Virus record (IMG/VR): IMGVR_UViG_3300024257_000013
Coordinates: 1-55,570 of that record
DNA length: 55,570 nucleotides
Source: a virus
Lineage: Duplodnaviria > Caudoviricetes
Reading direction: 5' to 3' (one strand)
Part shown: piece after piece, positions 2,493-53,944 of the stretch
How the letters are laid out: every line of letters begins with the position of its first letter
Position numbering within the stretch: the first letter of the stretch is position 1
Position numbers and translations under genes: made by a program
Notes under the pieces: generated by a model
What the model saw: the letters and a program-made list of their open reading frames with translations, nothing else
Told to the model about the DNA's origin: nothing
Database searches by the model: none

Positions 2493-2497
2493 CCACC

Positions 2498-3052
2498 ATG
2501 GCTAATGAAGCATACCAATACCAATCACCTTTTGCTGCTAATGGGTTAGGATCTCTTGACCAATATGCTGGTTCAAAACCATTTGCCTTTGCACCTTCTA
2601 CAAATGTGCAACCTCAAAATACTGGGTATAAACCTCTTTTCCCTAACTTTAATGCAGCTGATCCAAGCACTTTTACTAACATACCTCAGTACCAAAGCAT
2701 GGGAAATGCTGTTAATTTGCCAACAAACTTGTTAGGTGGGGCTAATAAAGAAAGTTCAGGAATCCTGTCTAAACTACTGGGCAAAGACGGGAAACTAATT
2801 CCTGGTCTAGAAGCCTTTAGTGCTTTAGGAAGTGGAATACTTGGACTGAAGCAGTATGGGTTAGAAGGGGCTGCTTTTAATTTTAGTAGAGGTCTGGCTA
2901 AAACTGATTTATCCAATCGAGCGAATATAGCGAATGCGGCTATTTCAGATAGGGCTAGAGCCAGAGCAGTACAGAGTGGAGCTTCTAGAAGTGACCTAGC
3001 TGATATTGTTAAAAACCAAACAGCTGATCGTAGAGTTAGAGGTACTGTCTAA
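2498..3052 (+). CDS. Small virion/ejection protein (N4 gp52-like position)
   Basis: 184 aa with a Gly/Ala-rich amphipathic C-terminal half; stop overlaps next start (TAATG). Confidence 0.55.
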   Translation: MANEAYQYQSPFAANGLGSLDQYAGSKPFAFAPSTNVQPQNTGYKPLFPNFNAADPSTFTNIPQYQSMGNAVNLPTNLLGGANKESSGILSKLLGKDGKLIPGLEAFSALGSGILGLKQYGLEGAAFNFSRGLAKTDLSNRANIANAAISDRARARAVQSGASRSDLADIVKNQTADRRVRGTV

Positions 3053-10869: not shown

Positions 10870-13800
10870 ATGGCTTATATAATAAGTAACTCCACTTACT
10901 ATTCTTCAACTGCAACAGGAAGTTTTAATGTTACTTTACCTGATGATATAGTATCAGGGGATGTTATCTATGCCTTAATGACTAAGAGGGTGTCAACAGG
11001 GTCAACTGTTTTCACGCAGCCATCAGGATGGTCTTTAGAGGGAACAATGCTCTCTCAGAGCAATGGTAAAGCGCAATGGAGTTATAAAGTCAGTGCTGGT
11101 ACAGAGGCAGGAACTTTAGTTACCTTTACCGGCAATACTACTGCGTATTGGACAGTTATTATAATCGTAGTCAGAGATGCTGACACAACAGCAACTCCGC
11201 ATGTTTATTCTGGTGGAACCTATAGTAGCCCTGGCGGAGCTTTAGAACCTCTACTAACAGTGGATGGGTCTAGTAATGGCAGTGATCAGTTGGTGCTATA
11301 TCACGGAACAGCTTATAATACTACAGGCGTCCTACTACCACCTATTGAAGACGTAACACAACTTGTAACCGCTAATAACCTTAACTCAACCCACAGTGTC
11401 TGGGTGGGCTATGATGTAATGTCTGTAGCAGGAGTAACTCCTTCGATAGGTATATACTCACCGAATCAAGGAACTAAATCTGTATTGTCTATAAAAAATG
11501 CCTCTAGCGGGATAGCGCAGCCAAGAGTAACCCAGGCTACAGACGAGACTCTTATAATAGGTAATTTAGTAGCAGATGTTTTTGATTTTTCTGATAGAGT
11601 AACTTCTTTAGTTTCTTACACTGCAAGCAGTTCTACAGATCTTGTAAGCGTTTCCCCAGGACATGGTTTAACTGATGGGGATTATATATGTCCTGTAACT
11701 CCAGATAGCGGTGGGGGTGTCGGTTTTGGCGCAGGTAAGACTTACGTTGTTTCTGGTTTAGTTGGCGATACTTTCTACGTTAAGAAATATGAAAATGAGC
11801 CTACTTTAAACTTTACAGCTAATATATCGTCCTACACGTTAGGTAAGTGTTTGTTTTTTGACTCAGATGATTCTATTGCAGCTACAATAGACGGTATTAA
11901 TACATCAGGCTACAAGCACTATATAGTAGCAGATGCAGAGTCATTGGCGTGTACCACAACTTACGACCCTTTAGATGCTGCGGGTGAGTTTGTAGGGTTT
12001 ACAAGTGTTTTTACAGCAAAAGATTTTACTGGTAAGGTACTAGCTTTTCAATATATTAATGAGCAACCAACTGATTTTTTTGGTGATAAAGGTTTTGTAA
12101 TTGTATTTGGTGACAGCTCTGGCAACTGGAATGCCTTTCAAGCAGCTAATAGAGATAATGCTATCCATACAACTAAAGACACTTTTATTATATCCCCTGC
12201 TACTGGAACTATATTAGATAGCAGCGGAACTGTTGACTACACAGACATTACTAAAATAAGCTTCCTATTTCATAGAGCCCCAAACAATAGTAACCCTCAA
12301 TATTTTAGAATATCTAATGTATATTCTATCCAGAAAGCTATTATAGTCGGTGGAGGTGTTAGTGCTCCCGTTACTTTACAGGAACTAAACAATAAGTTTT
12401 CACCAAATCAAGGAAACAAGTATGTACAGTTACAAGGGACAGGGCAGTATTTAAAGAAGTTTGGTGTTCAGCTTGGGGATGGTGTTAATGAAACTCACTT
12501 CTATGCTGCTGCCTCAAGCTTAGAAACTCCTTCTGCTTATATCTTAAAACATGAAAATAAGCATCAATGGAATGTAGGTGATCAAGATATTGCTTTAACA
12601 ATAAAAGCATCAGCGGCTGACTCTTACAACTTTGCTAACTCAATAGTAGCTTCAGATACGTTTCAATACTTTACGGTAGATGCAGCTTCTAGCTTATCTG
12701 CCACTTATATATTTACAGGATGTAATTTTGTAGGTCGTACTGTTGAATGGAAATCAGGAGTAAATATTACCGGTGCTAATGTATCGTCGTGTAAGGCTCT
12801 TGTACACAACGGTGCATCATTAAGCGGGGCTACGATATCCAATGTAGTTACAGGCGAAACCGCATCCATAGCGGACATTACCAGCGAAACGATGTTTGAT
12901 GATGTGGTAACAGATGCTATTTTTAAGGATAATACAAATGCACCCGCCATAAGGATAACGGGCGATCAAACAGGTTCTTGGTCTGATCCAAATCTAACAG
13001 TATATGGCAACACTTACGATATTGAGTACACGGGAACAACAGATTTTAGTATTCAATCTGCCAATGCATTAACTGTTAATAATTCGAGTACAGGAACACT
13101 AACAGTCGTTACTCCAACAGTATCACTTGTTATCAATTCAGATGTAACGGCATTAATTCGCTATTTTGAAGATGACTCTCAAACGATAGTTGGTAGTACA
13201 ACCGGGGTAACTTTAAGCTACACATATCCAGATGATGATCCTATGGATATTGAAGTACTTAAGCAAGGTTATGTACCAGTAAATAGACAAGACGTAGTTC
13301 CTTACAACGGTGACTATGATATTACACTTGATTATGATGAGGCTTATAATTCCTCCCACGGTTTAGTAATAACTACCGACTATACATACAACAGAACGAC
13401 TAAGGTATTGTCTATATCCGCTGATCAGGAAGCTCTGGATGTAAGATCTTCATTAGCTGATGCTATCCGTACTAATTCAAGTTACTACAACACCCCTCTA
13501 CTGATGGATGTTATCGGTGGTTTAGTTCGTATTGACTTAATTGGTGGCATGACCTGCTCAGACATGAGCACATGGAAAGGTACTGGCAGTGAGGTATACG
13601 CTGCTGCTGACTCAGCTAATCCCATAGAGAAATGGTGTGCTGTTAAAACCGTTGGAGTAATTACTGATTCTACTACGCACTACAGACAAATTGATTCGGG
13701 GGCATCTACGGCAGTAGCACTGACTAGTAATGTGGTTAACGAAGCTTTTCAGTATTGGTCTGATCCAGATCATGACGGAGTGGCTACAACAGATACCTCA

Positions 13801-15144
13801 AACTATTTGCTGATTAAATCATTTCTTGCAGGTAGTAAGCAAGGTAGAATCGATATTCTAACAGCCAGTGGTGATTCTGCATTGAGATCTACCTTATACC
13901 AAGTAGGGTTAGCTAACGAGAGTCATGACTATGCTGGTACAGATCCAGGTATTACAGTCGACATAACACTAGTAACTGGCGGTACCGTTGGTGGTAAAGT
14001 GTTTGCATATGAGATAGTTGATGGTGGTACTAACAGTGGTACAGATATAGCAGACCAACTTAATTATAATGCCGCTAATAACCCTAACACTGTGATAGCT
14101 GGTGGTACCGGGTTAAGGTACTTCGAACTCCCTGATATGGTTATTTATAACGCTTCTGCTGTAGAAACTGAGTACGGATATGAAGAAGGTAATACACCTA
14201 CTTTGGTCGGATTTTATGTTTCGAGAAGTAGTGCTGATCACCCAGATTTTACACGGTTCCAAGCAGATGATGGAACTTACTACGTTAAACCAGTGCTGGC
14301 AAATATATCTATTACAAACCTGCCTGATGGTATAGGTGGTGATACTAGGCTGCACGTATACAATGTAACTACAGATAAAGTTATTTATAGCGGTGATCCG
14401 ACAGGTACAGGTTATTCCACTTCGTACACGAATGGTCATGTGGATTACGCTTCTTCTGGTGATTCAATACGTATCCGATTTGCACATTTAGATGCAGGTA
14501 CATCGTTTGAGTACGGTGAAACTATTGTTACTGCAAGTACAGATGGTATTACTGCTGATGGCAGTAACTTTATAAGTGCAGATACTATTTACGCTATTAA
14601 TTCAGTAGATGGCAGTGCAGTAACTGTGTTTACAGCTGATTACGCTGGAGATGAGATAGAGATTGCTACAGATACCGATTTTATTGCAGCTCAGTTTTAT
14701 GCTTTTTACTGTTATACATTAACTGATGCGATAGGTATTACAGGCTTCTGGAACGGAATAACGGCTAATGATACAGGCAATTATTTAATAAATAATAGTG
14801 TAGTTGATATTTACTTTAACTCTCCTACAGGTGTGACTTACACTGTTAAACAAACAGACTCAGCTCGCATCTACAGAGCGGATAGTGCCTACCCGGTTAA
14901 AGACCCTTCTACATCAGGATATGGCGTACAGATCAACTGGAAGTCTCAAGTGTTTGTTGTAACTACTGGTGGAAGTGCTTTAACCGCTAGTGAGCAAGCA
15001 CAGCTGACAGCAGTAGAAAGTAAAACAAGTGGGTTAAACTACACCATTACAGGTGAAGTTAATGCTAATGCTAAGTCTATGAATGATACGGAAATAGTAG
15101 GAGGAAGTGGAGATACGGATCTGTTTAGGAGTATTAATGAATAA
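10870..15144 (+). CDS. Large tail fibre/adhesin-like virion protein
   Basis: 1424 aa, Ser/Thr/Gly/Asp-rich beta-type composition, with an HGLTDGD module typical of tail proteins. Confidence 0.6.
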   Translation: MAYIISNSTYYSSTATGSFNVTLPDDIVSGDVIYALMTKRVSTGSTVFTQPSGWSLEGTMLSQSNGKAQWSYKVSAGTEAGTLVTFTGNTTAYWTVIIIVVRDADTTATPHVYSGGTYSSPGGALEPLLTVDGSSNGSDQLVLYHGTAYNTTGVLLPPIEDVTQLVTANNLNSTHSVWVGYDVMSVAGVTPSIGIYSPNQGTKSVLSIKNASSGIAQPRVTQATDETLIIGNLVADVFDFSDRVTSLVSYTASSSTDLVSVSPGHGLTDGDYICPVTPDSGGGVGFGAGKTYVVSGLVGDTFYVKKYENEPTLNFTANISSYTLGKCLFFDSDDSIAATIDGINTSGYKHYIVADAESLACTTTYDPLDAAGEFVGFTSVFTAKDFTGKVLAFQYINEQPTDFFGDKGFVIVFGDSSGNWNAFQAANRDNAIHTTKDTFIISPATGTILDSSGTVDYTDITKISFLFHRAPNNSNPQYFRISNVYSIQKAIIVGGGVSAPVTLQELNNKFSPNQGNKYVQLQGTGQYLKKFGVQLGDGVNETHFYAAASSLETPSAYILKHENKHQWNVGDQDIALTIKASAADSYNFANSIVASDTFQYFTVDAASSLSATYIFTGCNFVGRTVEWKSGVNITGANVSSCKALVHNGASLSGATISNVVTGETASIADITSETMFDDVVTDAIFKDNTNAPAIRITGDQTGSWSDPNLTVYGNTYDIEYTGTTDFSIQSANALTVNNSSTGTLTVVTPTVSLVINSDVTALIRYFEDDSQTIVGSTTGVTLSYTYPDDDPMDIEVLKQGYVPVNRQDVVPYNGDYDITLDYDEAYNSSHGLVITTDYTYNRTTKVLSISADQEALDVRSSLADAIRTNSSYYNTPLLMDVIGGLVRIDLIGGMTCSDMSTWKGTGSEVYAAADSANPIEKWCAVKTVGVITDSTTHYRQIDSGASTAVALTSNVVNEAFQYWSDPDHDGVATTDTSNYLLIKSFLAGSKQGRIDILTASGDSALRSTLYQVGLANESHDYAGTDPGITVDITLVTGGTVGGKVFAYEIVDGGTNSGTDIADQLNYNAANNPNTVIAGGTGLRYFELPDMVIYNASAVETEYGYEEGNTPTLVGFYVSRSSADHPDFTRFQADDGTYYVKPVLANISITNLPDGIGGDTRLHVYNVTTDKVIYSGDPTGTGYSTSYTNGHVDYASSGDSIRIRFAHLDAGTSFEYGETIVTASTDGITADGSNFISADTIYAINSVDGSAVTVFTADYAGDEIEIATDTDFIAAQFYAFYCYTLTDAIGITGFWNGITANDTGNYLINNSVVDIYFNSPTGVTYTVKQTDSARIYRADSAYPVKDPSTSGYGVQINWKSQVFVVTTGGSALTASEQAQLTAVESKTSGLNYTITGEVNANAKSMNDTEIVGGSGDTDLFRSINE

Positions 15145-15392
15145 TGTTTTCTTCCAAATCTTTCAGTACAAAATCTTTTAGTACGGACAGTTTCTTATTT
15201 GATTCTTTTGAAGAGATAATAGAAAAAGTTCTTCCTAAAGTAAAAGTATCTTCTGGACCAGGCGCTGAAAGAGCTGTACTGCAGCGTAATCAGCCACTAG
15301 ACAAAAAAATAGAGTATACTCAGAACCTTCAACAAGAAGATGAAGAGCTACTTAGCATAGTATCTCTTCTACTAAAATCAGGTATTCTGTAA
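15144..15392 (+). CDS. Hypothetical protein
   Basis: 82 aa, coupled to both neighbours by TAATG overlaps; FSSKSFSTKSFST repeat. Confidence 0.6.
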   Translation: MFSSKSFSTKSFSTDSFLFDSFEEIIEKVLPKVKVSSGPGAERAVLQRNQPLDKKIEYTQNLQQEDEELLSIVSLLLKSGIL

Positions 15393-18300
15393 TGGCGTGT
15401 AATGTAGAAAAAATTCTTAAAGAGCATAATGTAATTACGTTGTCATTAGATAACAGTAGATTACCTAAAGGCAACAGAAAAGGGTTTAACATTATAAGCG
15501 ATCCTGAAGCTTCTAAAGAAGAGAAGCGTAAAGCTGTTCATGACCTTATTCAGATCAACCTTAAAACCAGGCAAACCTTGCTGTTAGATGCTTACGGCAA
15601 AACAGCTCTTAAAGAAGAGTATGTTATACAGCCTCCTAGCAGGGAAATTGAACTAAAGAACCAAAAAATTATTGAGAGAATATCAGCTACTGCAGCAGAG
15701 AATATTCTGAACAACTCAATACTAATTGGAGGACTTAGAAGGTTATCTGATTTCATAGAGACCAGCTCAAAGAAACTGAACGTACTGTTTCACAATTCTA
15801 AATCCTTGTCTGATTATCTCAACAACACTAAAGAAGGCGCTATTGCCTACTCAAAATACTCCAAAGAAGATAAACAATTTGTTGAGTATATTAAAAGAAA
15901 TACCGAAGGGTTTAATTCTTTTGTACATGGAGATAAAGATAACGCACCTATTCTCCCATACATGACAGACAGTAGATTCGGTAACTTCACAAAAGGTAAA
16001 GCTATAGGTAATAGAGCTGTACTGGATGAGTATACGGATATGTATCAATATTTACTGCAGAAAGCAGAAACAGGCGGTTACACAGTAGATCCTATGGTTA
16101 TTGAAGCTACTGGTATCGCTATTACTAATTGGTTAGCTACTCAAGCTACCGGTACGTTTACAAACACCTGGGAAGACATAAATAGAATATTTGGTAGAAA
16201 TACTAGTGAATGGGTAAAACCAAAACACGAAGAAAAATTTACTGATATAGGAGCTGTACAGTCTAGTGTCATAGACAGCTTAGGTTCTGAGATATTTAGT
16301 ATGCTTGGATTTAAAGCTAAAGTATCTGATGTCGATGGTTCTGTAGCACCTCGGTTAAAAGTAGCATTAGGAGCACTGGCTGTAGCTTATATGATAGACA
16401 GAGGAACGCTGCAACAAACCGCTGTACCTGCTACAGACTTTCCTTCAGATACAGGAACTATCAGCGAATCACAGCAGACAGTTGGTAAAGATACTCTTTT
16501 TGTAAAAATAGTTAGTCAGGAAAATATTGAAACCTTATCTGAAATAAGAAAAGCTACTGAAGCTGTTCCTGAACTTCTTAATCTAGAAAACTATAAAGTA
16601 TTTCCCGGGAGTAAACCTTCTACACATACTCCTAAGTTTATGAGAGGTACTCGTCAACAGACACCAGAAAGAACCGGTAACACTATTAGAAATATACAAC
16701 AGGATAAGTGGACTGTTAGAAATAGTACTGTAAATAAATTCTTTGAGCTGGATGAAGCAACACAAGCTATTGTCACAGGAAGAAATACTGACATAGAAAA
16801 TGCGCATGTAACTCAACGTAAAAGTTTACAAGCTGTTAATAACAGAATTGATCGTAGTCTGGACAATATTAAAGAATTTATTGGGAAGTTACGTAAACCT
16901 CAACAATCTTTCTACATGAAGTATTTTGTATCCCGGGGTGGAAGACTGTTTATAGACAATAATACTATTGACCCTATTCAAGACAAGCTAATCAGGCACA
17001 TGATTGGTTTAAAAAGTCACCTGGTATCTGTAGAAGGTCTTAAGCTAAATAGGACATTTCAACTAGCAGTAGCTCAAGCATTTGGTTATGGAATAGATAA
17101 ACATCATTTTCTTGATAGTTTGAAAGAATTTAAAAGTATTCTTGCAGCTACAAAGGATGCTGTTAATGCATTAAAGAAAAATGTTAACGACAGGACCCCA
17201 GAAGACATAATAGCTATACAAGAAGCTGTTAAGTTAGGTGGAGAAAAAATGCATACATTTGAAGCATTATTGGCTTTAACTAAGTATTCTCCTGATAAGC
17301 CTTTCTTAACTACCTTGGGTATTGAAACAGATGCTGTTACCAGCGGAGTGATGATTGGTAATATGTTATCACTATTAGACGGTGTAGAAGACCTGGCTTC
17401 TGGTGGAGTATTTTTAGACAATGTAACTACTGATTATCCTTCTCATGCTGCTTTGCCTAATTCTATGGACTTGTATCAGAAACTTACAGCTAAATGGCAG
17501 AAAGTTATATCTGATATGGCTAACAAGAACAAAAACAACGCAAAAGCCATATCGATTGCTACTAGAAACATTATTGGTTCATTCATAAAAGAAGGAAATC
17601 TTATATCTGATATAGGACGTGAATTTAGTAAAGATCCTTTAATGGTCACCAATTATGGATCTGCGCTAAAAAAAGCTAAAGAAAATTTTGCATACGCAGT
17701 ACTGAACCAGTTTTATTCCAAAATAGCCAAAGCAGAAGATGCAGAACTAATGGTATTAGGGAATGCGTTAGAGACACTTATAAAAGAAATTATACCTATA
17801 GATCAGAAGCTGGATAAAGATTTTGTACTTACACACAAACAGCAGGATACTTTTATAAAGTCAGTATTAGAAGTTCATGGTGAAGCTCTTACCATGTCTC
17901 TAGAAGACAGACTTGGTAACTTTATAAAATATAGAGAGAAAATTAATAAAGCTTTTCAAATTATGTTTTATACGTTTAACAAAAAATTTGAAATTGCTTT
18001 AGAAGCTAAAAAAGAGGAACTTGGTAGAATACCGTCATTAGAGGAGACTGAAGCCCTCTTAGACACTTTAAGAAAGTTTATGCCCATTGTCAAAGGACCA
18101 CTTTCTAAAGGCTTAGATGACGGAATAATAGCCATAAAGGGAGGTTTAAGAAGAAACTATATCAAAGCATACCAAGTACAGATAAGTTTTAGTAGACCTT
18201 TAAGGAATACTGCACGAGAAGAAGGTACTTCCAGTATCACTAGTTATGCAAAATCTTATAAGTTCCTTGACCCGGGAGTAGCTGGAACAGTTACTAATAT

Positions 18301-21300
18301 TCACAATATTGACTCTGTTATACAGCAAGCTGTTTTATCTGCTTTTGCAGCATTAAATGTACACGATGCAGCAGTGTACTCTTTAGCTGATGTAGCTAAA
18401 GGTACAGGTGTCTATAATAAATCTTTTATAGATGTAGTTACTTCATATGACTTAATGCAGGAAGTATCAGATAGTCTTAATAATGTTATCGAAAGTGTTA
18501 GAGCACTACCTGAAGAAGAACGTAGTCAAATTTCTACTCATTTGTCAGAAAACTTGTACAGCAAAAATGACAAAGGTAAAAGAATTGCCTTTAACTTAAT
18601 TCAAGAAATAGCAGAATTAAAAGAATTGCATACAGAAGTTAAAGCAGCCAGGGAGAGCTTATTAAAAGATCATTCTCATATAGCTGTTAACCATTCTGCA
18701 TATCATGATTCAGAATCTGTGTACATTTTAGAAACTAAAAATGTTAAGCCTTTAGATTCTTCTGATGGGCCAATAGCGGCTGTTTTTAAAGAAATAGAAA
18801 GCTTTAAAGGTTCTATCGGAAGAAGCATAGATTTTGAAAATTTTACCTCTTTATTTTCAGGAGTTATAGATGCTACTACTATTCAAACTATCTTCAGTAA
18901 GCTTGAAGATGTAGGAGTAGAAAAAGAATCTACAGCACATACAGCTACCTTACAGGAACTGTTAGATAACTTTATCAAGTTACAACATGATATCGATATT
19001 AAAGTGGGTGAAAGCGGAGACACTACAATAGGTGCTCAGCGTACCTTTACAGATGGTACTCAAGATATTCATGTATTAGGTTCAGTAACAGGCAATAAAA
19101 ACAACGTAAAGATGTCTGCACAAGAAACGTATGTGCACGAACTTATACATGCCGTAACTGAGTACGCAGTAGATACAAATTCCGGTTTACGTAGAGGTTT
19201 AAAACAAATATTTGCACTTGCTGAGAAAAATACTACTTGGAGAGATTTTCTTCCTAAAGGTAAAGATTTTACAGCAGATGAAGTACGAACAGCTAAAGAG
19301 ACTTATGAGTATTTGTTTAATAATAGTCGTAGTTATAAAGATCCTGTTTCTGGTCGTACTGTAAATCCTTATTTGCATGAATTTGTAGCTTATGGATTAT
19401 CTAATGAAAGATTTGCAGCTAAATTATCTACATTAACAGTAAGAAATAGAACTAAGCGTGAAGGTAGTTTATGGGAACGTTTAGTGCAATGGTATAAAGA
19501 CGCACTTAAATATGCAGCTAATAAGCTACGGGGTATTGAAAATCTTACTGCAGATAAAGCTTTAAGAAAAATGTTAGATCAAGCCTTAACTGCTAGTGAA
19601 AAACAAAAGCGCAGTATTTTTAGGATGTTTAATGTACTTGATTCTGCTAATCAGATAACGGTAGATAAAATTCATGCTTGGATATTTGCACCTGCAGCTA
19701 AGTATGCTAGGAAAGATAAGCCTAAACGTATTCCGGGTAGAGTACTTCATACTTTGGCAGGATTATTAGATTCTAAAATATATGCTGAATTAGGTTCTGT
19801 TATCAAACAAGTTAGTCGCAATATAGGAATAACAGAAAGAAATTTCTTTGTTAAATTAGTGAGAGAAATACAGCAGCAAAAAGGAAATAACGCTGTATGG
19901 CATTCTTTGCTTCGAGCTTCTAAGCATATTGTAGACCAAGCACGTATGCGTGAAGCTACAAACGTAATTAAACATATTCGTAAAGGTTTTCATACAGAAG
20001 TTACTACAGAAGAAAGTGAAGCTCTTTATAAAATATTTATAAAGCTGGATTTAGTGTCTTTGTTGGATACTGCTGAAAGAGACAAATATACGCCCGATAA
20101 TCTACTGGGGCTTCTAAGCTCAGATAGCTCTTTGGACCTTTTAATTACTTCTTTAGAAAAACAAATTAGAAAAGAATATAAAGCTAATGGTTTGCTTTAT
20201 ATAAACCAGGCAGAAGGTTTAGGCTCAAAAATGGCTACTAGCAATACCGTAGACTGGCAATTAAATAATGCTTACGCAATCGCTAATGCAGCGGGATTAG
20301 GTATTGAAGTATCTGGTGACTTGAATAGGGCTACTAAACTTATTGATGAACTGGCTTCCTTGTATGGTATTAAACACAGTAAACAAGATTATCGAAATTT
20401 AGCCCATGCTGTATATAAGAGGGAAAATGCTGCTGATGGTTTAGATAATGGAATAGCTAAGTTATTTTCTTTGCACAAGTTAAATAAAGAAATGTCTTTA
20501 GAAAAACTGTTTCACAATAATAAAATGCAAACAGAAAAAGGATACTCTAAAGAAACATTTGATCCCAGAGTAGATGTAAGAACAGCAACTGCTGACCAGA
20601 TAGACATACTAATTTCTGAAGGTTACACCTATGCTGCTGCGGATAAAAAACCTCTTACGATGGATATCTCTGATAAATCAGAAAAAAGATGGTTAATGGT
20701 AAATCCTAATGGAGGTGACGCTACCTGGGTTAAAGCTATTGTTTCTCTTACAGCTAAAAAACATCAAGGTGAAGCATTGCAGGATATCTACCAGGCTATG
20801 GACCCTGAAATGAGCTATAGAGATGCTAAAATTAAAACTGCTGGAGTAATAGCAGAAAAACGTTTAAAGGCTTATAGGCAGCTTTCTCAGCGTGTTAAAC
20901 CAACAGAAACAGTAAAGTTGCAGCCTATTGTGTCTGAGCACGGTAATGCAGTTAATCTACGTTACTTAATGTCTGAACACAATAAAGACAGTTTGCTCAA
21001 CCGGGATAACAGATTTGATCATGTATTAGGACGTATGTTTGGAAGTATTGTGGATAAAACAGGCTCTACAGAAATAAACAAAAAAGTATTAATAGAAGCT
21101 AAAAAAGAATTTGAGCAAAACAAAAGTACGCAATTACGTGAATATGTGAATTTTACTGAAACTTCTTCAGATCCTGAAATAGCAGAAATGTATAAACTTA
21201 TGCCTCTAGAAATGAAAAAGGCTATTAAAAGTATTTGGGGTGAAAATGAAGATGTTTATATTAGGGAGGAATTCTTAAATCTGATATTCGGTTTCAGAAA

Positions 21301-22330
21301 AATGAAATTTACAGATAAGAAAAATTTTGTTGGAGGTACAATTAGAAGTGTCAATAAAACACTAACATGGCTTTTAGGCAATACACTATTTCCTAAAGCA
21401 CCTAATGTAGATATTGAAAAGTTGTGGATAGCAACAGTTAAAATAGCTAAAGAGAATATTGTCATAAAGACAGGTGTTATTCTATTACCTAACTTTGTCA
21501 GTAATAATCTTATCCTTTTTGCTAAAGGGGTAAATCCCAGAAATATAGCAACATACCAGGCAGAAGCACTAGTAGAGTTGGAAAACTATCAGAAAGATTT
21601 GTCTGAAAGAGATATTACAGAAAGAGAATTACAAAGTAATATCAAGTTATCTGCAAATAAACGTAAAAAGTTAGAACTTAAGCTAAGTAGGTTACAAGAC
21701 AGTGTAGACAACAATCCAGTAGCAGAATTAATTGATGAAGGCATTTTTCAAAATATCATAGAAGATATTAATTTAGAAGAGGATATATATAGTGGTAAAG
21801 CAAAATTAGCAGAAAGAGCAAAGGAGCTTGCTGATAAGTATTTACATGAATATGTAGCTACCTCCTATAAATACCTATATATGGATAAAACTACTGGACC
21901 TTACAAATTACTGCTTAGGGCTACACAGGTAAGTGATTTCATTGCTAGATTTGCTTTGTACAAGCATAGAACATCAAACGTCCCTAAGAAGTTTAAATCA
22001 AGAGAAACTAGACTAGAATACAAACAAAAGGTTTTAAAAGAAGTTGTAGAAACTTTTGTAAACTATGATGTAGTTACTTCTAAAGAGCTTCAAACTATTA
22101 ATGATCTTGGAGCTATTATGTTTACAAAGTTCTTTTTCAGAAAATTTAAAATTATATTTAGTCTCTTTACTGAACGTGCTGCTTCTATGATTAGTATTCT
22201 TGCAGTAGAAAAAGCATTTGGAGAGGCAGATTCTATTGACGATAATCCGTTTAATATTTGGTCTAGAGTCAATTTTCCTGATGATATTGTGGAAGAAGCT
22301 GCTCAGCTTCCCGCAATAAGCTGGCTATAG
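15392..22330 (+). CDS. Virion-encapsidated RNA polymerase (N4 gp50-like catalytic and C-terminal part)
   Basis: T7-superfamily motifs: SRGGRL, motif A ETDAVTSG (~17325), motif B REFSKDPLMVTNYG (~17620), motif C NVHDAA (~18360). HELIH...HEFVAYG zincin-like region. C-terminal VSDFIARF...FVNYD as in N4-like vRNAPs. Confidence 0.9.
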   Translation: MACNVEKILKEHNVITLSLDNSRLPKGNRKGFNIISDPEASKEEKRKAVHDLIQINLKTRQTLLLDAYGKTALKEEYVIQPPSREIELKNQKIIERISATAAENILNNSILIGGLRRLSDFIETSSKKLNVLFHNSKSLSDYLNNTKEGAIAYSKYSKEDKQFVEYIKRNTEGFNSFVHGDKDNAPILPYMTDSRFGNFTKGKAIGNRAVLDEYTDMYQYLLQKAETGGYTVDPMVIEATGIAITNWLATQATGTFTNTWEDINRIFGRNTSEWVKPKHEEKFTDIGAVQSSVIDSLGSEIFSMLGFKAKVSDVDGSVAPRLKVALGALAVAYMIDRGTLQQTAVPATDFPSDTGTISESQQTVGKDTLFVKIVSQENIETLSEIRKATEAVPELLNLENYKVFPGSKPSTHTPKFMRGTRQQTPERTGNTIRNIQQDKWTVRNSTVNKFFELDEATQAIVTGRNTDIENAHVTQRKSLQAVNNRIDRSLDNIKEFIGKLRKPQQSFYMKYFVSRGGRLFIDNNTIDPIQDKLIRHMIGLKSHLVSVEGLKLNRTFQLAVAQAFGYGIDKHHFLDSLKEFKSILAATKDAVNALKKNVNDRTPEDIIAIQEAVKLGGEKMHTFEALLALTKYSPDKPFLTTLGIETDAVTSGVMIGNMLSLLDGVEDLASGGVFLDNVTTDYPSHAALPNSMDLYQKLTAKWQKVISDMANKNKNNAKAISIATRNIIGSFIKEGNLISDIGREFSKDPLMVTNYGSALKKAKENFAYAVLNQFYSKIAKAEDAELMVLGNALETLIKEIIPIDQKLDKDFVLTHKQQDTFIKSVLEVHGEALTMSLEDRLGNFIKYREKINKAFQIMFYTFNKKFEIALEAKKEELGRIPSLEETEALLDTLRKFMPIVKGPLSKGLDDGIIAIKGGLRRNYIKAYQVQISFSRPLRNTAREEGTSSITSYAKSYKFLDPGVAGTVTNIHNIDSVIQQAVLSAFAALNVHDAAVYSLADVAKGTGVYNKSFIDVVTSYDLMQEVSDSLNNVIESVRALPEEERSQISTHLSENLYSKNDKGKRIAFNLIQEIAELKELHTEVKAARESLLKDHSHIAVNHSAYHDSESVYILETKNVKPLDSSDGPIAAVFKEIESFKGSIGRSIDFENFTSLFSGVIDATTIQTIFSKLEDVGVEKESTAHTATLQELLDNFIKLQHDIDIKVGESGDTTIGAQRTFTDGTQDIHVLGSVTGNKNNVKMSAQETYVHELIHAVTEYAVDTNSGLRRGLKQIFALAEKNTTWRDFLPKGKDFTADEVRTAKETYEYLFNNSRSYKDPVSGRTVNPYLHEFVAYGLSNERFAAKLSTLTVRNRTKREGSLWERLVQWYKDALKYAANKLRGIENLTADKALRKMLDQALTASEKQKRSIFRMFNVLDSANQITVDKIHAWIFAPAAKYARKDKPKRIPGRVLHTLAGLLDSKIYAELGSVIKQVSRNIGITERNFFVKLVREIQQQKGNNAVWHSLLRASKHIVDQARMREATNVIKHIRKGFHTEVTTEESEALYKIFIKLDLVSLLDTAERDKYTPDNLLGLLSSDSSLDLLITSLEKQIRKEYKANGLLYINQAEGLGSKMATSNTVDWQLNNAYAIANAAGLGIEVSGDLNRATKLIDELASLYGIKHSKQDYRNLAHAVYKRENAADGLDNGIAKLFSLHKLNKEMSLEKLFHNNKMQTEKGYSKETFDPRVDVRTATADQIDILISEGYTYAAADKKPLTMDISDKSEKRWLMVNPNGGDATWVKAIVSLTAKKHQGEALQDIYQAMDPEMSYRDAKIKTAGVIAEKRLKAYRQLSQRVKPTETVKLQPIVSEHGNAVNLRYLMSEHNKDSLLNRDNRFDHVLGRMFGSIVDKTGSTEINKKVLIEAKKEFEQNKSTQLREYVNFTETSSDPEIAEMYKLMPLEMKKAIKSIWGENEDVYIREEFLNLIFGFRKMKFTDKKNFVGGTIRSVNKTLTWLLGNTLFPKAPNVDIEKLWIATVKIAKENIVIKTGVILLPNFVSNNLILFAKGVNPRNIATYQAEALVELENYQKDLSERDITERELQSNIKLSANKRKKLELKLSRLQDSVDNNPVAELIDEGIFQNIIEDINLEEDIYSGKAKLAERAKELADKYLHEYVATSYKYLYMDKTTGPYKLLLRATQVSDFIARFALYKHRTSNVPKKFKSRETRLEYKQKVLKEVVETFVNYDVVTSKELQTINDLGAIMFTKFFFRKFKIIFSLFTERAASMISILAVEKAFGEADSIDDNPFNIWSRVNFPDDIVEEAAQLPAISWL

Positions 22331-39186: not shown

Positions 39187-41610
39187 TTACTTCCTCGTAA
39201 GTACAGGCAACATATTTGCATTGTTTAAGTTAACACCACATCTAGAACATGCTACATAATAACAACGCATTGCCACCAGGTCTTCGTGTGTTTCTACACC
39301 ACCTTTATCGATGATATCTCCTACCCGAGCATTGAGATCGTCTGCAATATAAACTGTTTCATATTCCAAACCTTTGGAGGTAAATACTGTAGCAATCACG
39401 TAACTAAGATCGACTTTTGATTCTTTTGCCATTTTGTATAAATTAAATATATTTACACCCTTACGGTTCAGTGTAAGAAGTAAATTTACAGCACTCTTTG
39501 TTTCCTGATCATCGATACATGCCAACAAATGGCTCAGGTAAGTATCCCCAGGTTTGCGGTTCTTTGTGTAATTTTCGTACTCTTCTTCAAGGTACTTATA
39601 CTTTTTTTGGTACACCTTTTTACCCTGGCCAGTTGATACTATAGCTAGTGGGTATGAGAATATTTCAGAGATGTTTCTAAGAAGGTGAAAACCTTTGTTT
39701 TGAGCTAATCTATGACTAATCTTTGAGATAATAGCAGCATTTGTTAAAGTACAATATAAAACTTTATCATTTTTGACAGGTTCATCTGTACCTACAAATT
39801 TAAACTCTTTGTCAGTATACTTTTGCATAAAAGATTGAATACGTTCAGCAATATCTATACTGCAACGAAAAGATTGAGTTAGGTTGAGTACTGGAGCATC
39901 TTCTAGTTCTTCGAAGCCGTCTACCAGATTTAAGAAATCGTAAATAGCCTGACTAGGTTCACCTAATCCAAGTTTTTTTGGTGCCTCAATAAGTTTGAAG
40001 ATTTCTAAAGCTACTGCAGTTGTATCATTTATTTCATCCAGGATAACCAGGTCATACTTACATTTGACAGTACCTTCAACCAATAAGAGGTGAAAGTACT
40101 TCAACATGAAATTGAAGGTAGGTGCCAACGTTCCTTCGAGCATCATTTCAATGTACTTAATAGCCAGTTCCTGTAGCTTTACTTCATCCAGGGCACTCTC
40201 CATAAATTCAAACATATCTACTGAAGCAGAAACGTAGAACAAATTGATAGCCTGTATGACTTTGTATTTTGCACTGTAAGAGATTTTCTCTTTAATACAG
40301 GTGTAGGAAATGTCACTAATATCCTGTTTAGGTTTTGCGTACCGGTAAGCTAATGCATGCAGTGTTTTACACTCAACATTAGTATTTCTGAATCGATACT
40401 TTCCCTCTTGCACAATGGCTTTGTTAAAGGCTGTATACAGTCCTCTAGATGGATTAATCTCATCAGCGATACGTTCACTCATAAAACTATTATGAGTAGT
40501 TACATAATCATCCGTAATATATAAATTATCTCCAGATACCGTAATGCATTGCTGTTCTTCTTGATAACAAAGTTTTTCAATACTGACTATCGCTTTTCTT
40601 ACTGTATTTTGTTTTCTAGGTGTTACTTTTATAGCCTTACGCTTTAGGCTGAAGGGATTAAAATCATTAAATCGTATTATGATAGTAAAACAGCTTCTGT
40701 TGTCTTTTTTATCATACAAATGTCTAGTTGCTGTACCGCCTAATGACTGAACTAATTCTGTAATATCTTTTGCTAGTTTTTCTGACGTAGTAGAATAAGT
40801 TACACGATTTCTTGTTCTTACATTTCCATCTGAGTCCATTAATCCATGCAGTAAATCTATTCTTTGAAGTTTACTTGAAAATTTATAGGTATCTGGAATA
40901 AACCTTTCATGAGAATATGTACCATGAAGGTTTAACTCTTTAAGTATCCTTTTTAAGCTGTGATCTCCGTGTTTTTGTACAGAATGGTTAAATACCTGTT
41001 GTAATCCTTTTTCTGAGGTATACCTAATCTTAGCCGGTTTTGTACCTTCAGGTAAAAGTGTTATACATTTATCTATGATACTTTTATCTTCTGAATAGCT
41101 ACTTAAACACACCTGAGTCTGAAAACTCCCATCAGCTATAAGTGCTCCCAGTAGATACGGATCTAAGGGTAATTCTACATAATTTGTAGCAATATTTGTA
41201 AGGGGTACTTTAAACTTATAGCTTTTAGTATTTTTCAAATTTTCTTTCAGTAACTGTTTTAAAGAAACAGCCCTATATTCTTTATTACGCCAATTTTGGC
41301 TATTTACATACCATAAATGATTAAGTCCACATCTAGCTTTACTTCCATCACTAAAATTTATTTCATACACATCTTTTATACCCTGTGGGTGAATTGCTAA
41401 TACTGTGTTTATAGTATTGTAAGGACTACATACTTTATCACCTACTTTAATTTTTCCAATGGTAGTCCAACCAGTAGGTGTAATAATTTTACTGCTTAAA
41501 GGTTGTTCTTTACCAGTACCGGCACCGGCTGATACGAGCAGTATTCCATCGGTGCTAACCACATGATCTTTTACGTCATGTTGTTCTGGAGTGTATTTTG
41601 TATAGCTCAT
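39187..41610 (-). CDS. SF1 (UvrD-like) DNA helicase interrupted by an intein
   Basis: AGAGTGK|S Walker A, AFNKAI, ILDE, LTQSFRC, SKGLEY, YVACSR. Confidence 0.88.
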   Translation of the reverse strand: MSYTKYTPEQHDVKDHVVSTDGILLVSAGAGTGKEQPLSSKIITPTGWTTIGKIKVGDKVCSPYNTINTVLAIHPQGIKDVYEINFSDGSKARCGLNHLWYVNSQNWRNKEYRAVSLKQLLKENLKNTKSYKFKVPLTNIATNYVELPLDPYLLGALIADGSFQTQVCLSSYSEDKSIIDKCITLLPEGTKPAKIRYTSEKGLQQVFNHSVQKHGDHSLKRILKELNLHGTYSHERFIPDTYKFSSKLQRIDLLHGLMDSDGNVRTRNRVTYSTTSEKLAKDITELVQSLGGTATRHLYDKKDNRSCFTIIIRFNDFNPFSLKRKAIKVTPRKQNTVRKAIVSIEKLCYQEEQQCITVSGDNLYITDDYVTTHNSFMSERIADEINPSRGLYTAFNKAIVQEGKYRFRNTNVECKTLHALAYRYAKPKQDISDISYTCIKEKISYSAKYKVIQAINLFYVSASVDMFEFMESALDEVKLQELAIKYIEMMLEGTLAPTFNFMLKYFHLLLVEGTVKCKYDLVILDEINDTTAVALEIFKLIEAPKKLGLGEPSQAIYDFLNLVDGFEELEDAPVLNLTQSFRCSIDIAERIQSFMQKYTDKEFKFVGTDEPVKNDKVLYCTLTNAAIISKISHRLAQNKGFHLLRNISEIFSYPLAIVSTGQGKKVYQKKYKYLEEEYENYTKNRKPGDTYLSHLLACIDDQETKSAVNLLLTLNRKGVNIFNLYKMAKESKVDLSYVIATVFTSKGLEYETVYIADDLNARVGDIIDKGGVETHEDLVAMRCYYVACSRCGVNLNNANMLPVLTRK
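40489..41508 (-). mobile_element. Class 3-type intein with LAGLIDADG homing endonuclease (340 aa)
   Basis: Starts EQPLSSKIITPTGW and ends YVTTHN before Ser. LLGALIADG and LHGLMDSDG motifs. W (NHLW), C (QQCITV), T (THN) triad. Confidence 0.88.
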
Positions 41611-44511: not shown

Positions 44512-44694
44512 TTATGGCGTGTCCCAGTAATCTTCAGTTAGTTTTGCATTTTCAAGTTCTTCAAACTTGTCTAATGCTTCTTTGTGTTTCATTGTTGTTA
44601 AATTTTTATAAGTAGCAGGAGTACCACTACCTTTTTTACTATCAGCAATAGTAAATTCTTGTTCACTAAATTCAGTCATATTGTTTTTCGTCAT
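44512..44694 (-). CDS. Hypothetical protein
   Basis: 60 aa; its start lies inside the duplicated 50-bp element. Confidence 0.5.
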   Translation of the reverse strand: MTKNNMTEFSEQEFTIADSKKGSGTPATYKNLTTMKHKEALDKFEELENAKLTEDYWDTP

Positions 44695-44730
44695 TTTTAT
44701 TTTCTTTCATGTATAGGTACAATATCAATA
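44681..44730 (-). repeat. Direct repeat copy 1 (upstream region plus start codons)
   Basis: TTGTTTTTCGTCATTTTT...CTTTCATGTATAGGTACAATA.CAATA is also present at 45742-45792. Confidence 0.8.
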
Positions 44731-45684: not shown

Positions 45685-45741
45685 ATGATATCTCCTAATT
45701 TTAAAATTATTGTACTCACCTATGAAACATATAGGAACATG

Positions 45742-45792
45742 TTGTTTTTCGTCATTTTTTCTTTCCTTTCATGTATAGGTACAATAGCAATA
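45742..45792 (-). repeat. Direct repeat copy 2
   Basis: Near-identical to 44681-44730; here it opens an 11-codon mini-ORF (MTKNNMFLYVS). Confidence 0.8.
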
Positions 45793-46844: not shown

Positions 46845-47126
46845 ACGTCACCTACTCGGGCATACATACTATTTTCACTTCTAAGATCCCATGTAATTGC
46901 GTTATTAACTAATGCCTGAGCAACAATTAGCACATCTTGTTTATTAAACACACCACTACGCATAACTACTCTCCAGATAACCCTGTGTGGTCACAATTAC
47001 CACGATCATATTGTTGGTTATAATGAATATCACTTGCTTGAACAGCAGCAATAAGTTCCAGCACAGATAACATTAGTATTAAAACAGTCATACAAAGCAG
47101 TAATAGAAATTTACGATTTGACATAA

Positions 47127-47327
47127 TTAACGCTCTATCAATTTACAGTAACCTTTATTGTCACTGTATGTTTTAGTTAAACTAACATTATTAGGATTAG
47201 TACATTTTGGTTTCCAGGCCATACATTTATCAGCTTCACAAGTAGGAGGTGTTCTCTGTTTACTTATTTGACATTCAAATAGTGGTCTAAAAGGACATAT
47301 CAATTCTACTGCATTATTGATATTCAT
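47127..47327 (-). CDS. Small Cys-rich protein
   Basis: CP...C...CMAW...GYC; AAGGAG RBS. Confidence 0.6.
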   Translation of the reverse strand: MNINNAVELICPFRPLFECQISKQRTPPTCEADKCMAWKPKCTNPNNVSLTKTYSDNKGYCKLIER

Positions 47328-47362
47328 TATAATTCTCCTTAAGGATTATTATTAAATTGATT

Positions 47363-47910
47363 AGCAGCTTTGTTTGGGTGGTTCAGCTATTTTGCACCCT
47401 TGCCGAGTCTTCGGCCTCTTTTTAACCTGTAAACAACTCCAAAAATTTAAATCGTATTTCTCTGCGTCAGACGCACCTGCTGCACCATTGCATTTGCAGA
47501 CAGGAGGTACAAAATATATAGTTTGCAACGACAACCTATTCGAATTAAGTACAGCATTATGGCTTCCCAGGTGGCCTAAAGGATTCTCAATCTGGTTTTA
47601 ATGCTGTGTATTACAGAAGCTTGGCATAAGGGATCATCTGCATTGCCTTTTGGCTGAATCGACAGCTCTACGCTTTGAAGAACGTTCATACGCAGCGGTA
47701 CACGGTTGGTTACGGTACTTGGTACTATTAGTTCCAGCACTACTTTGTAATGCTTTTAATTGTGTTATGCCGGTTACCATTATCCGGCGTATTCGCTCAA
47801 GGTTCTGTAATACGGATCTGTTACCGGTTCTGTTTTTAAGTTGTGTATTACCTTAAATACCCGCAACTAACCCTCCTGGGTTTGAGCCAACATTGAGAAA
47901 TAGAGCTGCT
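47363..47910 (+). ncRNA. Candidate large structured ncRNA (~550 nt)
   Basis: 13-bp closing helix 47363-75/47898-910 and about ten nested helices, with G-U pairs consistently on the + strand. No credible ORF. Confidence 0.65.
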
Positions 47911-47945
47911 TGGTTCACTCTAGAACAAAATATTTTCATATTTCA

Positions 47946-47969
47946 TTCAAAAGAGTGTACGGAGTACAC
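47946..47969 (-). promoter_or_regulatory. Candidate N4-type vRNAP hairpin promoter (template on + strand)
   Basis: TTCAAAAGA-GTGTAC-GGA-GTACAC: C-GGA-G triloop hairpin similar to the N4 P2 template. Confidence 0.45.
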
Positions 47970-47976
47970 ATTTACA

Positions 47977-48016
47977 TAAAAAATAACCTAACAACTCATA
48001 AGAGTCATTAGGTTAA
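47977..48016 (-). terminator. Terminator after the RNAPII genes
   Basis: TAACCTAA...TTAGGTTA stem followed by a T run on the minus strand. Confidence 0.6.
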
Positions 48017-48019
48017 TAT

Positions 48020-49042
48020 TTAGCTTAGTGCATATGAACTGTTCAGGATGTCTTCACTTAAGTCTGAGCTGTATTTATTAATTACAGCTTCTTGACCTGA
48101 AATATCAAATAATACATTTTTGAGAATATCCATATCAGCAAGTTCTGCCATAACTTCTCTGTATATTTTGACTAATGCTCCTGCATTACAAGGATGTACT
48201 CCATAAGAATCGTGAATAGTAGTAATATCAAAGTCACACCTAAGTACAACTTCTTCCAGTACTTCGGAATCTAACCAATGACATATGTTAGCTGGTAAAC
48301 TTGCATCATTACTACGAGCCATACACACCTCAAAACGTTGAGTAAACGTACTATGATCAAGTTCATCTACTTCAATTCTTGCATCAATAAAGTCTTTAAC
48401 ATTGTATACCACAGTATTTCTATCTAACCCTAACCAGATATACTGAGAACTGAGAGGTTCTACATAGCTATTGATAACTTCTTTAGCTACTTCAGCACCA
48501 GGAGTAATTTCTGATAATACGTTATAAAAAACTTTTAATTGAGTATCGTTAAATATCCTTTTAGGCACAGCTTTAGAATTATAATTGTGAGTCATAATTG
48601 CATCTTTAACATGTATTCGTTTTAATCCTTCACCTGTTTTAACTAATTTAATACGCAATTGAGGAGATAATTGCTTATTCATTAGCTTTACAGTATTAGT
48701 GTAAAGATCAGGTCTTTTACCAGTATTAATTAAACCACACTGCTTAGCAGTCTCTTTACAACCACTTAAGATAGCCATCATTTGATGTCCACTATTTACA
48801 CTGTCTAAATGCATGATGTGGCCTGTAGGTTTACCGTTTAAGGTGTCTCTATAGGCTATTAATGCTTTACGGTATAGTAATGGTTCATCTGCATATCTAA
48901 TGATTTTCCATAGTTGATCTAATGTCCTTTCATTAACCCATGTTAACCTTTTATCCCAGGTTAATTTATCTTTACCATATGTATTGGCAATATCAATCTT
49001 AAGCCAATCAAGAGGAGTAAATTTATCAGTAATATTACACAT
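48020..49042 (-). CDS. RNA polymerase II subunit 2 (N4 gp16-like)
   Basis: WLKIDIANTYGKDK, LDSVNSG (motif A), R..VK.AIMT..Y (motif B), ANICH..D, TIHDS (motif C), SSYALS end. Confidence 0.9.
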   Translation of the reverse strand: MCNITDKFTPLDWLKIDIANTYGKDKLTWDKRLTWVNERTLDQLWKIIRYADEPLLYRKALIAYRDTLNGKPTGHIMHLDSVNSGHQMMAILSGCKETAKQCGLINTGKRPDLYTNTVKLMNKQLSPQLRIKLVKTGEGLKRIHVKDAIMTHNYNSKAVPKRIFNDTQLKVFYNVLSEITPGAEVAKEVINSYVEPLSSQYIWLGLDRNTVVYNVKDFIDARIEVDELDHSTFTQRFEVCMARSNDASLPANICHWLDSEVLEEVVLRCDFDITTIHDSYGVHPCNAGALVKIYREVMAELADMDILKNVLFDISGQEAVINKYSSDLSEDILNSSYALS

Positions 49043-49101
49043 ATTGTTTTTCCTTATTTGTTTCTCTTTATTATTAGCCCTCCGTTAAGAGGGCAAACAA
49101 A

Positions 49102-49347
49102 TTACGCCCAGTACATAGCCTTCGAGAGCTTAAAGAACTCTTCGGGTGTAACAATGCTACCGTCGACGGATACATCGATTGCTATGTTGGCAGTGTATAT
49201 GCCGACATAGTAATGTACCTTCACTCGCATATCTTTGAAAACACCGATATAGAATCTGCTGGTCTTGATTTGGATAAAGTCCTTGATAGGGGCTTTACGC
49301 ACAATTGCTAAAAGAGATAAAAGTAGTAAACGTTGTTCATTATTCAT
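49102..49347 (-). CDS. Hypothetical protein between the RNAPII subunits
   Basis: 81 aa with AGGAG RBS. Confidence 0.55.
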   Translation of the reverse strand: MNNEQRLLLLSLLAIVRKAPIKDFIQIKTSRFYIGVFKDMRVKVHYYVGIYTANIAIDVSVDGSIVTPEEFFKLSKAMYWA

Positions 49348-49357
49348 GTTATTTCTC

Positions 49358-52321: not shown

Positions 52322-52572
52322 GATTCACCTCCGGAGTGAATGATTTGATAGCTTAAGTGCTACCATGTTATGTACCGCCAGATAGGCACACTGGTTCAAA
52401 ATAAAGATAGTTATGAAGACACCCAGGGGGGGTACCTTCCTTTTTCCTTTGTCCAGTGTGTAAGTAATGCCTTTATACAAAATTATAAAATTTTCAAAAA
52501 GTTGAAACTCAGCTCCCCTATAAAATTATTATTTTTGTGGGTAAACCTTTTGGTAAATTATATTTTACTTTC

Positions 52573-53869: not shown

Positions 53870-53944
53870 ATCCCCGTGGACAACCGGTCAAGTCACTGGG
53901 CTTTCATCCCAGCATAGCGAGTTCGATTCTCGCCGGGGATACCA
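53870..53944 (+). tRNA. tRNA-Glu(TTC)
   Basis: ATCCCCG/CGGGGAT acceptor stem, CTGGG-CTTTCAT-CCCAG anticodon arm, GCGAG-TTCGATT-CTCGC T arm, encoded ACCA. Confidence 0.95.

Follow-up and report, generated by a model that had tools for sequence, protein, structure and literature searches.

An orphan element, possibly a structured leader insertion, behind a conserved N4-type hairpin in a marine N4-like phage

The window analyzed here, a stretch of 55,570 nt, is a fragment of a marine N4-like (schitovirus-type) phage, as judged from the family matches of its polymerase ORFs. These are a virion RNA polymerase ORF and an RNAP2 that is split into two ORFs on the minus strand (Table 1). By tblastn, the product of the large-subunit ORF shares 31-37% identity with RNAP2 of N4-like phages in culture. 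Between about 52 kb and 22.5 kb the genes lie on the minus strand. The phage also encodes an intein with a LAGLIDADG domain, and a tRNA at 53870 is the sole Rfam match of the whole window at gathering scores. Between the RNAP2 stop (48020) and the next start codon (47327) there is a gap of 692 nt, 47328-48019. It was originally described as a gap without a credible ORF, and this is correct, since no ORF longer than 75 aa is found in it on either strand. The element of interest occupies most of this gap. It does not interrupt RNAP2, because the C-terminus of the large subunit is complete (..SSYALS, compared with the family consensus ..SEYALS); an intron interrupting the split polymerase gene at this site was rejected on the same ground. 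Downstream, the first ORF has its own ribosome-binding site. This ORF (66 aa) is present in a collection of 15 billion proteins on 51 contigs, and the other flanking ORF (81 aa) on 55 contigs. A search of IMG/VR with the 66-aa protein found no relative.

Table 1. Features at and around the element, in window positions.
Feature	Position	Strand	Remarks
Virion RNA polymerase ORF	15392-22330		phrog_2206, E=0
'N4-like RNA polymerase' part of split RNAP2	50248-49358	-	phrog_2166
RNAP2 large subunit	48020-49042	-	PF00940, phrog_2051
14-pair hairpin and T-run	47984-48015	-	Likely terminator of the RNAP2 transcript; directly 3' of the RNAP2 stop
Hairpin GTGTAC-TCC-GTACAC, then TCTTTTG	47955-47969	-	Read as N4-type promoter
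Predicted 11-bp hairpin with GAAA loop, GAAUGAAAUAU-GAAA-AUAUUUUGUUC	47920-47948	-	5' end of the inferred transcript
ORF-free, GC-richer element, 548 nt	47363-47910	- (inferred)	Inverted termini; single-copy
48-codon ORF	47637-47780	-	ATG at 47780, TGA stop; inside the stop-poor frame
Hairpin GCAUUAC-AAA-GUAGUGC	47737-47753	-	Two variant substitutions fall in the stem
AAGGAG ribosome-binding site and ATG	47327-47345	-	First downstream ORF (66 aa, 47327-47127)
X15 RNA contig	47574-47851		Depth 12.4
X17 RNA contig	47591-47863		Depth 11.1
X20 RNA contig	47460-47807		Depth 8.1
X16 RNA contig	47361-47529		Depth 6.0; overlaps a contig, 47013-47388, running into the downstream gene

Two hairpins follow the RNAP2 stop in the aligned relatives, i.e., a terminator hairpin with a T-run and then a small hairpin with a TCC loop. 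Both have equivalents in the window. The second of them has a 6-bp stem, lies 45 nt upstream of the element on the minus strand and is the only hairpin of the conserved promoter form in the window. A TCC loop on a stem of at least 5 bp, no more than 260 nt after the RNAP2 stop, is found in 57 of 128 distinct related loci. When perfect hairpins with each of the 64 possible 3-nt loops were counted, the next commonest loop was present in 7 loci. If the stem may be as short as 4 bp, the TCC hairpin occurs in 59 of the 128 loci, compared with 2 of 151 control windows of equal size inside the RNAP2 gene. The loop is fixed among the relatives and the stem is free to vary, with 33 different stems (counted by their 5' arms).

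This form resembles a known type of promoter. According to the portion of the source available, the N4 virion-polymerase promoter is a template-strand hairpin with a 3-nt loop, -12A/-11G/-10G, followed by -9C and -8G, and four A's after the hairpin set the start (PMC4496689). The early and middle promoters of LUZ7 are similar hairpins located about 15 bp before the start, again from a partial account (PMC9163698). Read on the non-template strand, the N4 description becomes TCC-G and then T's, and the window fits it except at -8. Position -9 (G on the non-template strand) agrees with the description in the window and in the majority of the 33 stem variants. At -8, which is G in the N4 description, the template strand has A here and the base is variable among the relatives. 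We took as promoter-like a hairpin with a stem of 5-7 bp, a 3-nt loop and GGA on the template strand, and 47969-47955 is such a hairpin. A simple consensus scan labels the same hairpin and its T-run terminator-like, so that the promoter call comes from the likeness to N4. From this likeness we infer that 47969-47955 is an N4-type promoter that fires leftward, probably with a start near 47951-47946. The conserved N4-type TCC-loop hairpin 3' of RNAP2 in the marine relatives is the firmest new result of this study.

The related loci were gathered through RNAP2 homologs, 80 from IMG/VR, 80 from metagenomes and 10 from GTDB, with a best RNAP2 identity of 43%. All 170 came from this RNAP2-guided collection, and a single-protein query for RNAP2 relatives contributed none. 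The closest RNAP2 relative, P0004 (64%), is known from a Logan contig alone. For 122 distinct loci we measured how far the RNAP2 stop lies from the next ORF of at least 50 aa. The median is 134 nt and the interquartile range 41-168 nt, and the distance exceeds 400 nt in a single locus (L171). The 931-nt gap of that locus was considered as a counterpart of the element and rejected, being an unrelated tandem-repeat array. If the 548-nt element is subtracted from the gap in the window, 144 nt are left. Because this is close to the median of the relatives, the element looks like an insertion, placed by its sequence context in the minus-strand 5' leader of the operon beginning with ATG 47327. It is not obviously a mobile one; the inverted termini expected of a MITE-like or IS-like insertion are present, and neither a flank duplication nor a second copy in the record was found. 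The region 3' of RNAP2 as a whole is not conserved across the relatives.

The element has a distinct composition and recognizable ends. Its GC content is 0.415-0.44 over 47400-47899, compared with 0.295-0.36 in the flanks, and it is present in one copy in the record. The termini are inverted (AGCAGCT/AGCTGCT, 7 bp, perfect) and extend to a closing helix of 13 nt with 85% pairing (47363-75/47898-910). Further inside are a 16-nt helix with 94% pairing (47608-23/47798-813) and a perfect 9-nt helix (47551-59/47599-607). Every helix listed in the original prediction was located in the sequence. That prediction called the element highly base-paired, which overstates the folding statistics. The z scores of the minimum free energy (MFE) are -2.90 on the plus strand and -2.87 on the minus strand, and on each strand 1 of 100 shuffles is as good. 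However, 16 coding windows of 548 nt from the same genome span +1.6 to -2.89; one of the 16 thus matches the element's value, and another three fall between -2.0 and -2.6. The element folds better than shuffled sequence, and for this genome the value is not exceptional. A perfect stem as long as the best one in the element, 11 bp, turns up in 5 of 150 shuffles (P about 0.03), and the sum of the top three stems is reached in 4 of 150. Short hairpins with 3-4-nt loops are not enriched in the element; it has 3, and of 201 genome windows 61 have that number or more. For the whole 634-nt leader on the minus strand (a fold of 47951-47318) z is -4.24, a value based on only 20 shuffles. Direct repeats within the element are short and weak and do not form iterons. 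An internal tandem duplication was rejected as not significant (P 0.07-0.8), and TTTTAANNTGT was rejected as an iteron, with 5 matches compared with 2.6 expected.

No search gave the element a relative. At the gathering scores of Rfam 15 there is no match on it, and a relaxed search of 47100-48200 at E<=10 yields four, with 16.8-19.2 bits compared with cut-offs of 60-90; the best has 19.2 bits against 60, and none is a large non-coding RNA, an intron or a ribozyme. It was originally stated that there are no hallmarks of tmRNA, RNase P or group II introns, and none of these models of Rfam 15 matches. Comparison with 50,697 phage records by distant blastn and megablast found no relative. Against the approximately 170 related loci, blastn and nhmmer returned only a 49-nt likeness, which is at the promoter hairpin outside the element. 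When five families of conserved ORF-free gaps in the relatives were run as profiles against the window, the element was unmatched, and a 24-nt degenerate pattern taken from it has no copy in IMG/VR. BLAST against 301 genomes of one bacterial order, picked solely since a related phage contig had been binned there, gave four chance-level matches of 22-30 nt. For the 210-nt central domain a covariance model was built from the single sequence; over 171 sources it gave one match of 19 bits inside an ORF of L072, which we treated as chance. The element belongs to no known RNA family. The structure is a prediction from single-sequence folds.

The element is found in other samples. It is complete, with all sampled words, in 14 DNA runs from 12 studies, and it is present in part (0.24-0.42 of the sampled words) in six RNA-library runs. 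RNA contigs on the element were obtained from four runs of four studies, within 47361-47863; the contigs carry no strand and DNA carry-over is possible. Contigs of the flanking genes range in depth from 2.1 to 14.6. Only in X15 and X20 does the element exceed every other piece in depth; in X16 and X17 it is no deeper than some flanking contigs. In X20 the element contig is the sole piece of the phage in 3 kb. In all four runs there is no RNA contig over 47864-48040, a coverage hole that proves nothing.

X16 also holds a natural variant, a 162-nt contig about 89% identical to 47673-47819, with 16 differences, of which seven are listed. Four of these seven substitutions fall in stems of the minus-strand MFE structure and all four keep pairing (C-G to U-G twice, A-U to G-U, and U-G to C-G); the other three are unpaired. 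There is no double compensatory change among the seven. The changes at 47750 and 47748 turn U-G into C-G and A-U into G-U in the hairpin 47737-47753. In the minus-strand frame the same two changes replace TTA with CTG, both of which encode Leu. In that frame six of the seven are synonymous and one is non-synonymous (Fisher p 0.0004, or about 0.002 after correction for six frames, from one variant and 90 nt). As a rough estimate, the seven substitutions alone favor coding over structure by only about three to one, and the other evidence points the opposite way.

We suggest, tentatively and with slightly less than even confidence, that the element is a non-coding insertion on the sense strand of a promoter-proximal leader, possibly a structured RNA. 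In such a leader, transcription would begin at approximately 47950 on the minus strand, the same as the flanking genes, from the hairpin promoter at 47969-47955. The element would then span roughly +40 to +590 of a transcript that leads to the AAGGAG and ATG at 47327. It may form a multi-helix domain of its own that is closed by pairing between its ends (47910-47904 with 47369-47363). The AAGGAG/ATG and an ancestral leader of about 144 nt would then remain contiguous. The structured leader could act in cis on the small early genes downstream of it, through stability or timing, and the element may also accumulate as a stable RNA fragment. In favor of this reading we count the virion-polymerase type of the phage, the intact RNAP2, the ribosome-binding site that the downstream ORF has for itself, the conserved TCC-loop hairpin, the short gaps of the relatives, the rise in GC, the z scores of the element and of the whole leader, and the substitutions that keep pairing. 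The contigs from RNA libraries, including those of X16 that reach the downstream gene, also speak for it, as do the absence of the element's ORFs from the protein collection and the lack of 3-base periodicity. Against it we count the stop-poor minus-strand frame, the synonymous bias of the variant, the coding control that equals the element's z, the lack of homologs, the terminator-like form of the promoter hairpin, and RNA contigs that carry no strand and may stem from DNA. It is also conceivable, though rather unlikely, that the element is a new large structured RNA of the sense strand (approximately 550-600 nt), stable and regulatory or directed against the host, and not a mere leader. Directly behind a virion-polymerase promoter, such an RNA would rank among the first made after DNA entry.

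Protein coding on the minus strand, now or recently, is the likeliest rival. The coding sequence would be an ORFan of about 190 codons from the hypervariable early region, by now interrupted by three stops, or else the 48-codon ORF would still be functional as a small protein. The minus-strand frame 47939-47364 has three stops in 192 codons and its partner frame on the plus strand has two, which shuffled sequences seldom match (P 0.0055 for the six-frame minimum in 2000 shuffles, and 0.004 for the second lowest). The synonymous bias of the listed substitutions fits coding at least as well as it fits structure. The neighboring small ORFs are likewise ORFans, with homologs absent from the 170 related loci. 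However, none of the three in-frame ORFs has a ribosome-binding site where the neighbors have AAGGAG, 3-base periodicity is absent (chi2 8.8, p 0.18, compared with 32-60 for real genes here), and the codon-usage score is 0.03 compared with 0.14-0.41 in real genes. The read-through product, written with X at the stops, has no match in 1.84 billion representative proteins and none in Pfam. Four ORFs of the element are unmatched in PHROGs, and six are missing from the 15-billion protein collection in which the neighbors are called on 51-55 contigs. A comparison with 2596 ORF fragments of the related loci gave no likeness beyond chance once the number of queries was allowed for, and a decayed copy of a gene from a neighbor or a relative was rejected. 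The stops are mixed (TAA, TGA, TAA), which led us to reject stop-codon recoding. Taken as a whole, we regard coding as a live but unlikely explanation. We consider it quite improbable that the element is a functionless passenger. In that case illegitimate recombination would have brought a fragment into a hypervariable hot spot between genes, where it is co-transcribed only for its place behind a promoter, and its helices and open frame would be leftovers of its source. The element is an orphan in every search, its GC content is unlike the rest of the genome, its fold z is inside the range of the coding controls, and the region downstream of RNAP2 is unconserved among the relatives, as would be expected of a passenger. 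Against this, the element stays intact across the 12 studies, its inverted termini close it on itself, and the variant substitutions look constrained, by pairing or by synonymy, and not neutral.

The remaining alternatives place the function on the DNA or on the other strand. A role as DNA, either as a replication origin or as extruded single-strand hairpins for the N4-type transcription or replication machinery, is very unlikely; the original prediction had raised a folded ssDNA element as its alternative. The primary origin of T7 lies just 3' of the T7 RNAP gene, which is in favor of such a role, and origins are usually AT-rich where the element is GC-richer, which is against it. The element contains long inverted repeats. 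It lacks iterons, an excess of hairpins with 3-4-nt loops and a significant internal duplication, and the sole hairpin of the conserved promoter form lies outside it; a cluster of hairpin promoters in the element was rejected for the same reasons. In the available portions of the N4 and LUZ7 papers, polymerases of the N4 type work with extruded DNA hairpins and single-stranded templates (PMC4496689, PMC9163698), which is consistent with a function of the DNA. Least probable of all is a large non-coding RNA from the plus strand, antisense to the early genes, which was the reading of the original prediction. The MFE is slightly lower on the plus strand (-159.2 compared with -151.3 kcal/mol) with the same z, and the 13-nt closing helix requires two G-U pairs that are possible only on the plus strand. 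The prediction was founded on G-U pairs lying mostly on that strand, but the MFE structures have 15 on the plus strand and 13 on the minus strand, which does not discriminate, and mirroring either structure onto the opposite strand costs about 43-45 kcal/mol. The post-promoter hairpin 47920-47948 has two G-U pairs on the minus strand that would be A-C on the plus strand, and three of the four pair-keeping substitutions would likewise yield A-C mismatches there. On the plus strand, a terminator-like hairpin (47402-47415) is near the expected 5' end, and the only promoter-like site (47493-47522, 9 of 12 positions) is downstream of the start of the X20 contig at 47460. The antisense reading is disfavored because the conserved promoter hairpin upstream and the leader context both lie on the minus strand. 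Thus, the earlier observation of a structured gap is real and partly confirmed, with modest statistics, and its interpretation is partly supported, without the antisense part.

As a non-coding, sense-strand leader insertion, the element would be located where the injected virion polymerase starts, in a phage that many ocean samples contain. A functional fold would make it the first large structured RNA linked to the unusual three-polymerase program of N4-like phages. As an orphan whose structural statistics are modest and for which coding is a live rival, the element has the value of a lead. The promoter hairpin, a by-product of the study, is maybe more useful. A TCC-loop hairpin behind RNAP2 provides a sequence rule for virion-polymerase promoters in uncultured marine N4-like phages.

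Several known systems share some of these features. Group I and group II introns are also discrete structured insertions with paired ends, and this phage carries an intein of the LAGLIDADG type; unlike them, the element interrupts no gene, matches no intron model and has no intron-encoded protein. A self-splicing intron was rejected, as RNAP2 is intact at its end and the ORF that follows begins with an AAGGAG and ATG of its own. ROOL, GOLLD, OLE and HEARO are large non-coding RNAs of bacteria and phages, and GOLLD and ROOL are also found in phages. The element is like them in its length of approximately 550 nt and its many helices, and it differs from them in having no match to an Rfam 15 model at E<=10, no family of homologs and no covariation support. 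The likeness to ROOL and OLE that was originally drawn comes down to size. In the Pseudomonas phage LUZ7, which is N4-like, the portion of the source available describes an intergenic hot spot of small RNAs between orf69 and orf70, and promoter hairpins with stems of at least 6 bp and loops of 3-4 nt (PMC9163698). Both are reminiscent of the present locus; the LUZ7 RNAs, as described in the same portion, are shorter than 250 nt, late and at another locus (PMC9163698). LUZ7 was compared by sequence solely through the searches of phage databases, which gave no match. Coliphage N4 is the system in which the hairpin has its counterpart. The present locus departs from N4 in the proposed long structured leader, as no such leader is among the features described for N4 in the portion of the source available, and two further differences are that -8 is not G here and that the site follows RNAP2 instead of lying at the genome end. 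The early promoters of N4, from the same portion, share with the hairpin described here a 6-bp stem, a 3-nt loop, GGA on the template strand, C at -9 and a template A-run (PMC4496689), and the hairpin described here is located in the early region, next to the RNAP2 genes.

The early regions of the related phages contain conserved gaps without ORFs, 350-700 nt long, which fall into several families. One such conserved segment, found upstream of RNAP2 in three of the loci collected around RNAP2 homologs (L092, L105 and L120), resembles positions 52399-52449 of the window (nhmmer E 5.7e-4). The tRNA gene in the early region of the window is on the strand opposite to that of the RNAP2 genes.

In many relatives the RNAP2 subunit genes are adjacent, or fused to encode proteins of about 590 aa, whereas in the window they are 315 nt apart (49043-49357). 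The intervening stretch holds an ORFan that has a good ribosome-binding site and is itself followed by a GC-rich hairpin. The start codon of the large subunit is one of three that are preceded by a repeated sequence of 31-54 nt, whose 19-nt core, TTGTACCTATACATGAAAG, has two exact occurrences versus 0.03 expected. The repeat is possibly a promoter or leader that these genes share.

Features of the window and of related loci
Feature	Position	Strand	Remark
Virion RNA polymerase ORF	15392-22330		only 2312 aa
UvrD-like helicase gene	39187-41610	-	contains intein-like insert
Repeated upstream sequence	44677-44730, 45738-45792, 49040-49070		before - strand start codons
TCC-loop hairpin	47955-47969	-	3' of RNAP2 gene; 6-bp stem, then T-run
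ORFan	49347-49102		81 aa
tRNA-Glu (TTC)	53870-53944	+	early region
TCC-loop hairpin, L092	about 4016-4036
TCC-loop hairpin, L089	about 4051-4071

The virion RNA polymerase ORF has its best stretch over profile positions 2261-3378 of 3406, and the 1424-aa ORF before it (10870-15144) has no PHROG match. The N-terminal part of the giant polymerase may have been split off or be very diverged. The insert of the helicase gene carries a homing-endonuclease domain of the LAGLIDADG type (PF14528, E 6e-10) and also matches Hom_end and, weakly, Intein_splicing.

In the distant phage-like contig L171, which binning placed in a Spirochaetia MAG, a fused 813-aa T7-like RNA polymerase gene is followed directly on its 3' side by a GC-richer 931-nt tandem-repeat array (2662-3594; units of roughly 120-180 nt), in which no tRNA and no Rfam match were found.

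Among related marine N4-like phage loci, the RNAP2 gene is followed by a conserved TCC-loop hairpin and a T-run in 57 of 128. The stem occurs in 33 variants and the TCC loop is invariant, and the hairpin might be used as a rule in searches for virion-polymerase promoters. As described in PMC4496689, the promoters of the N4 virion polymerase have the same loop and the same -9 base as the hairpin that trails RNAP2.
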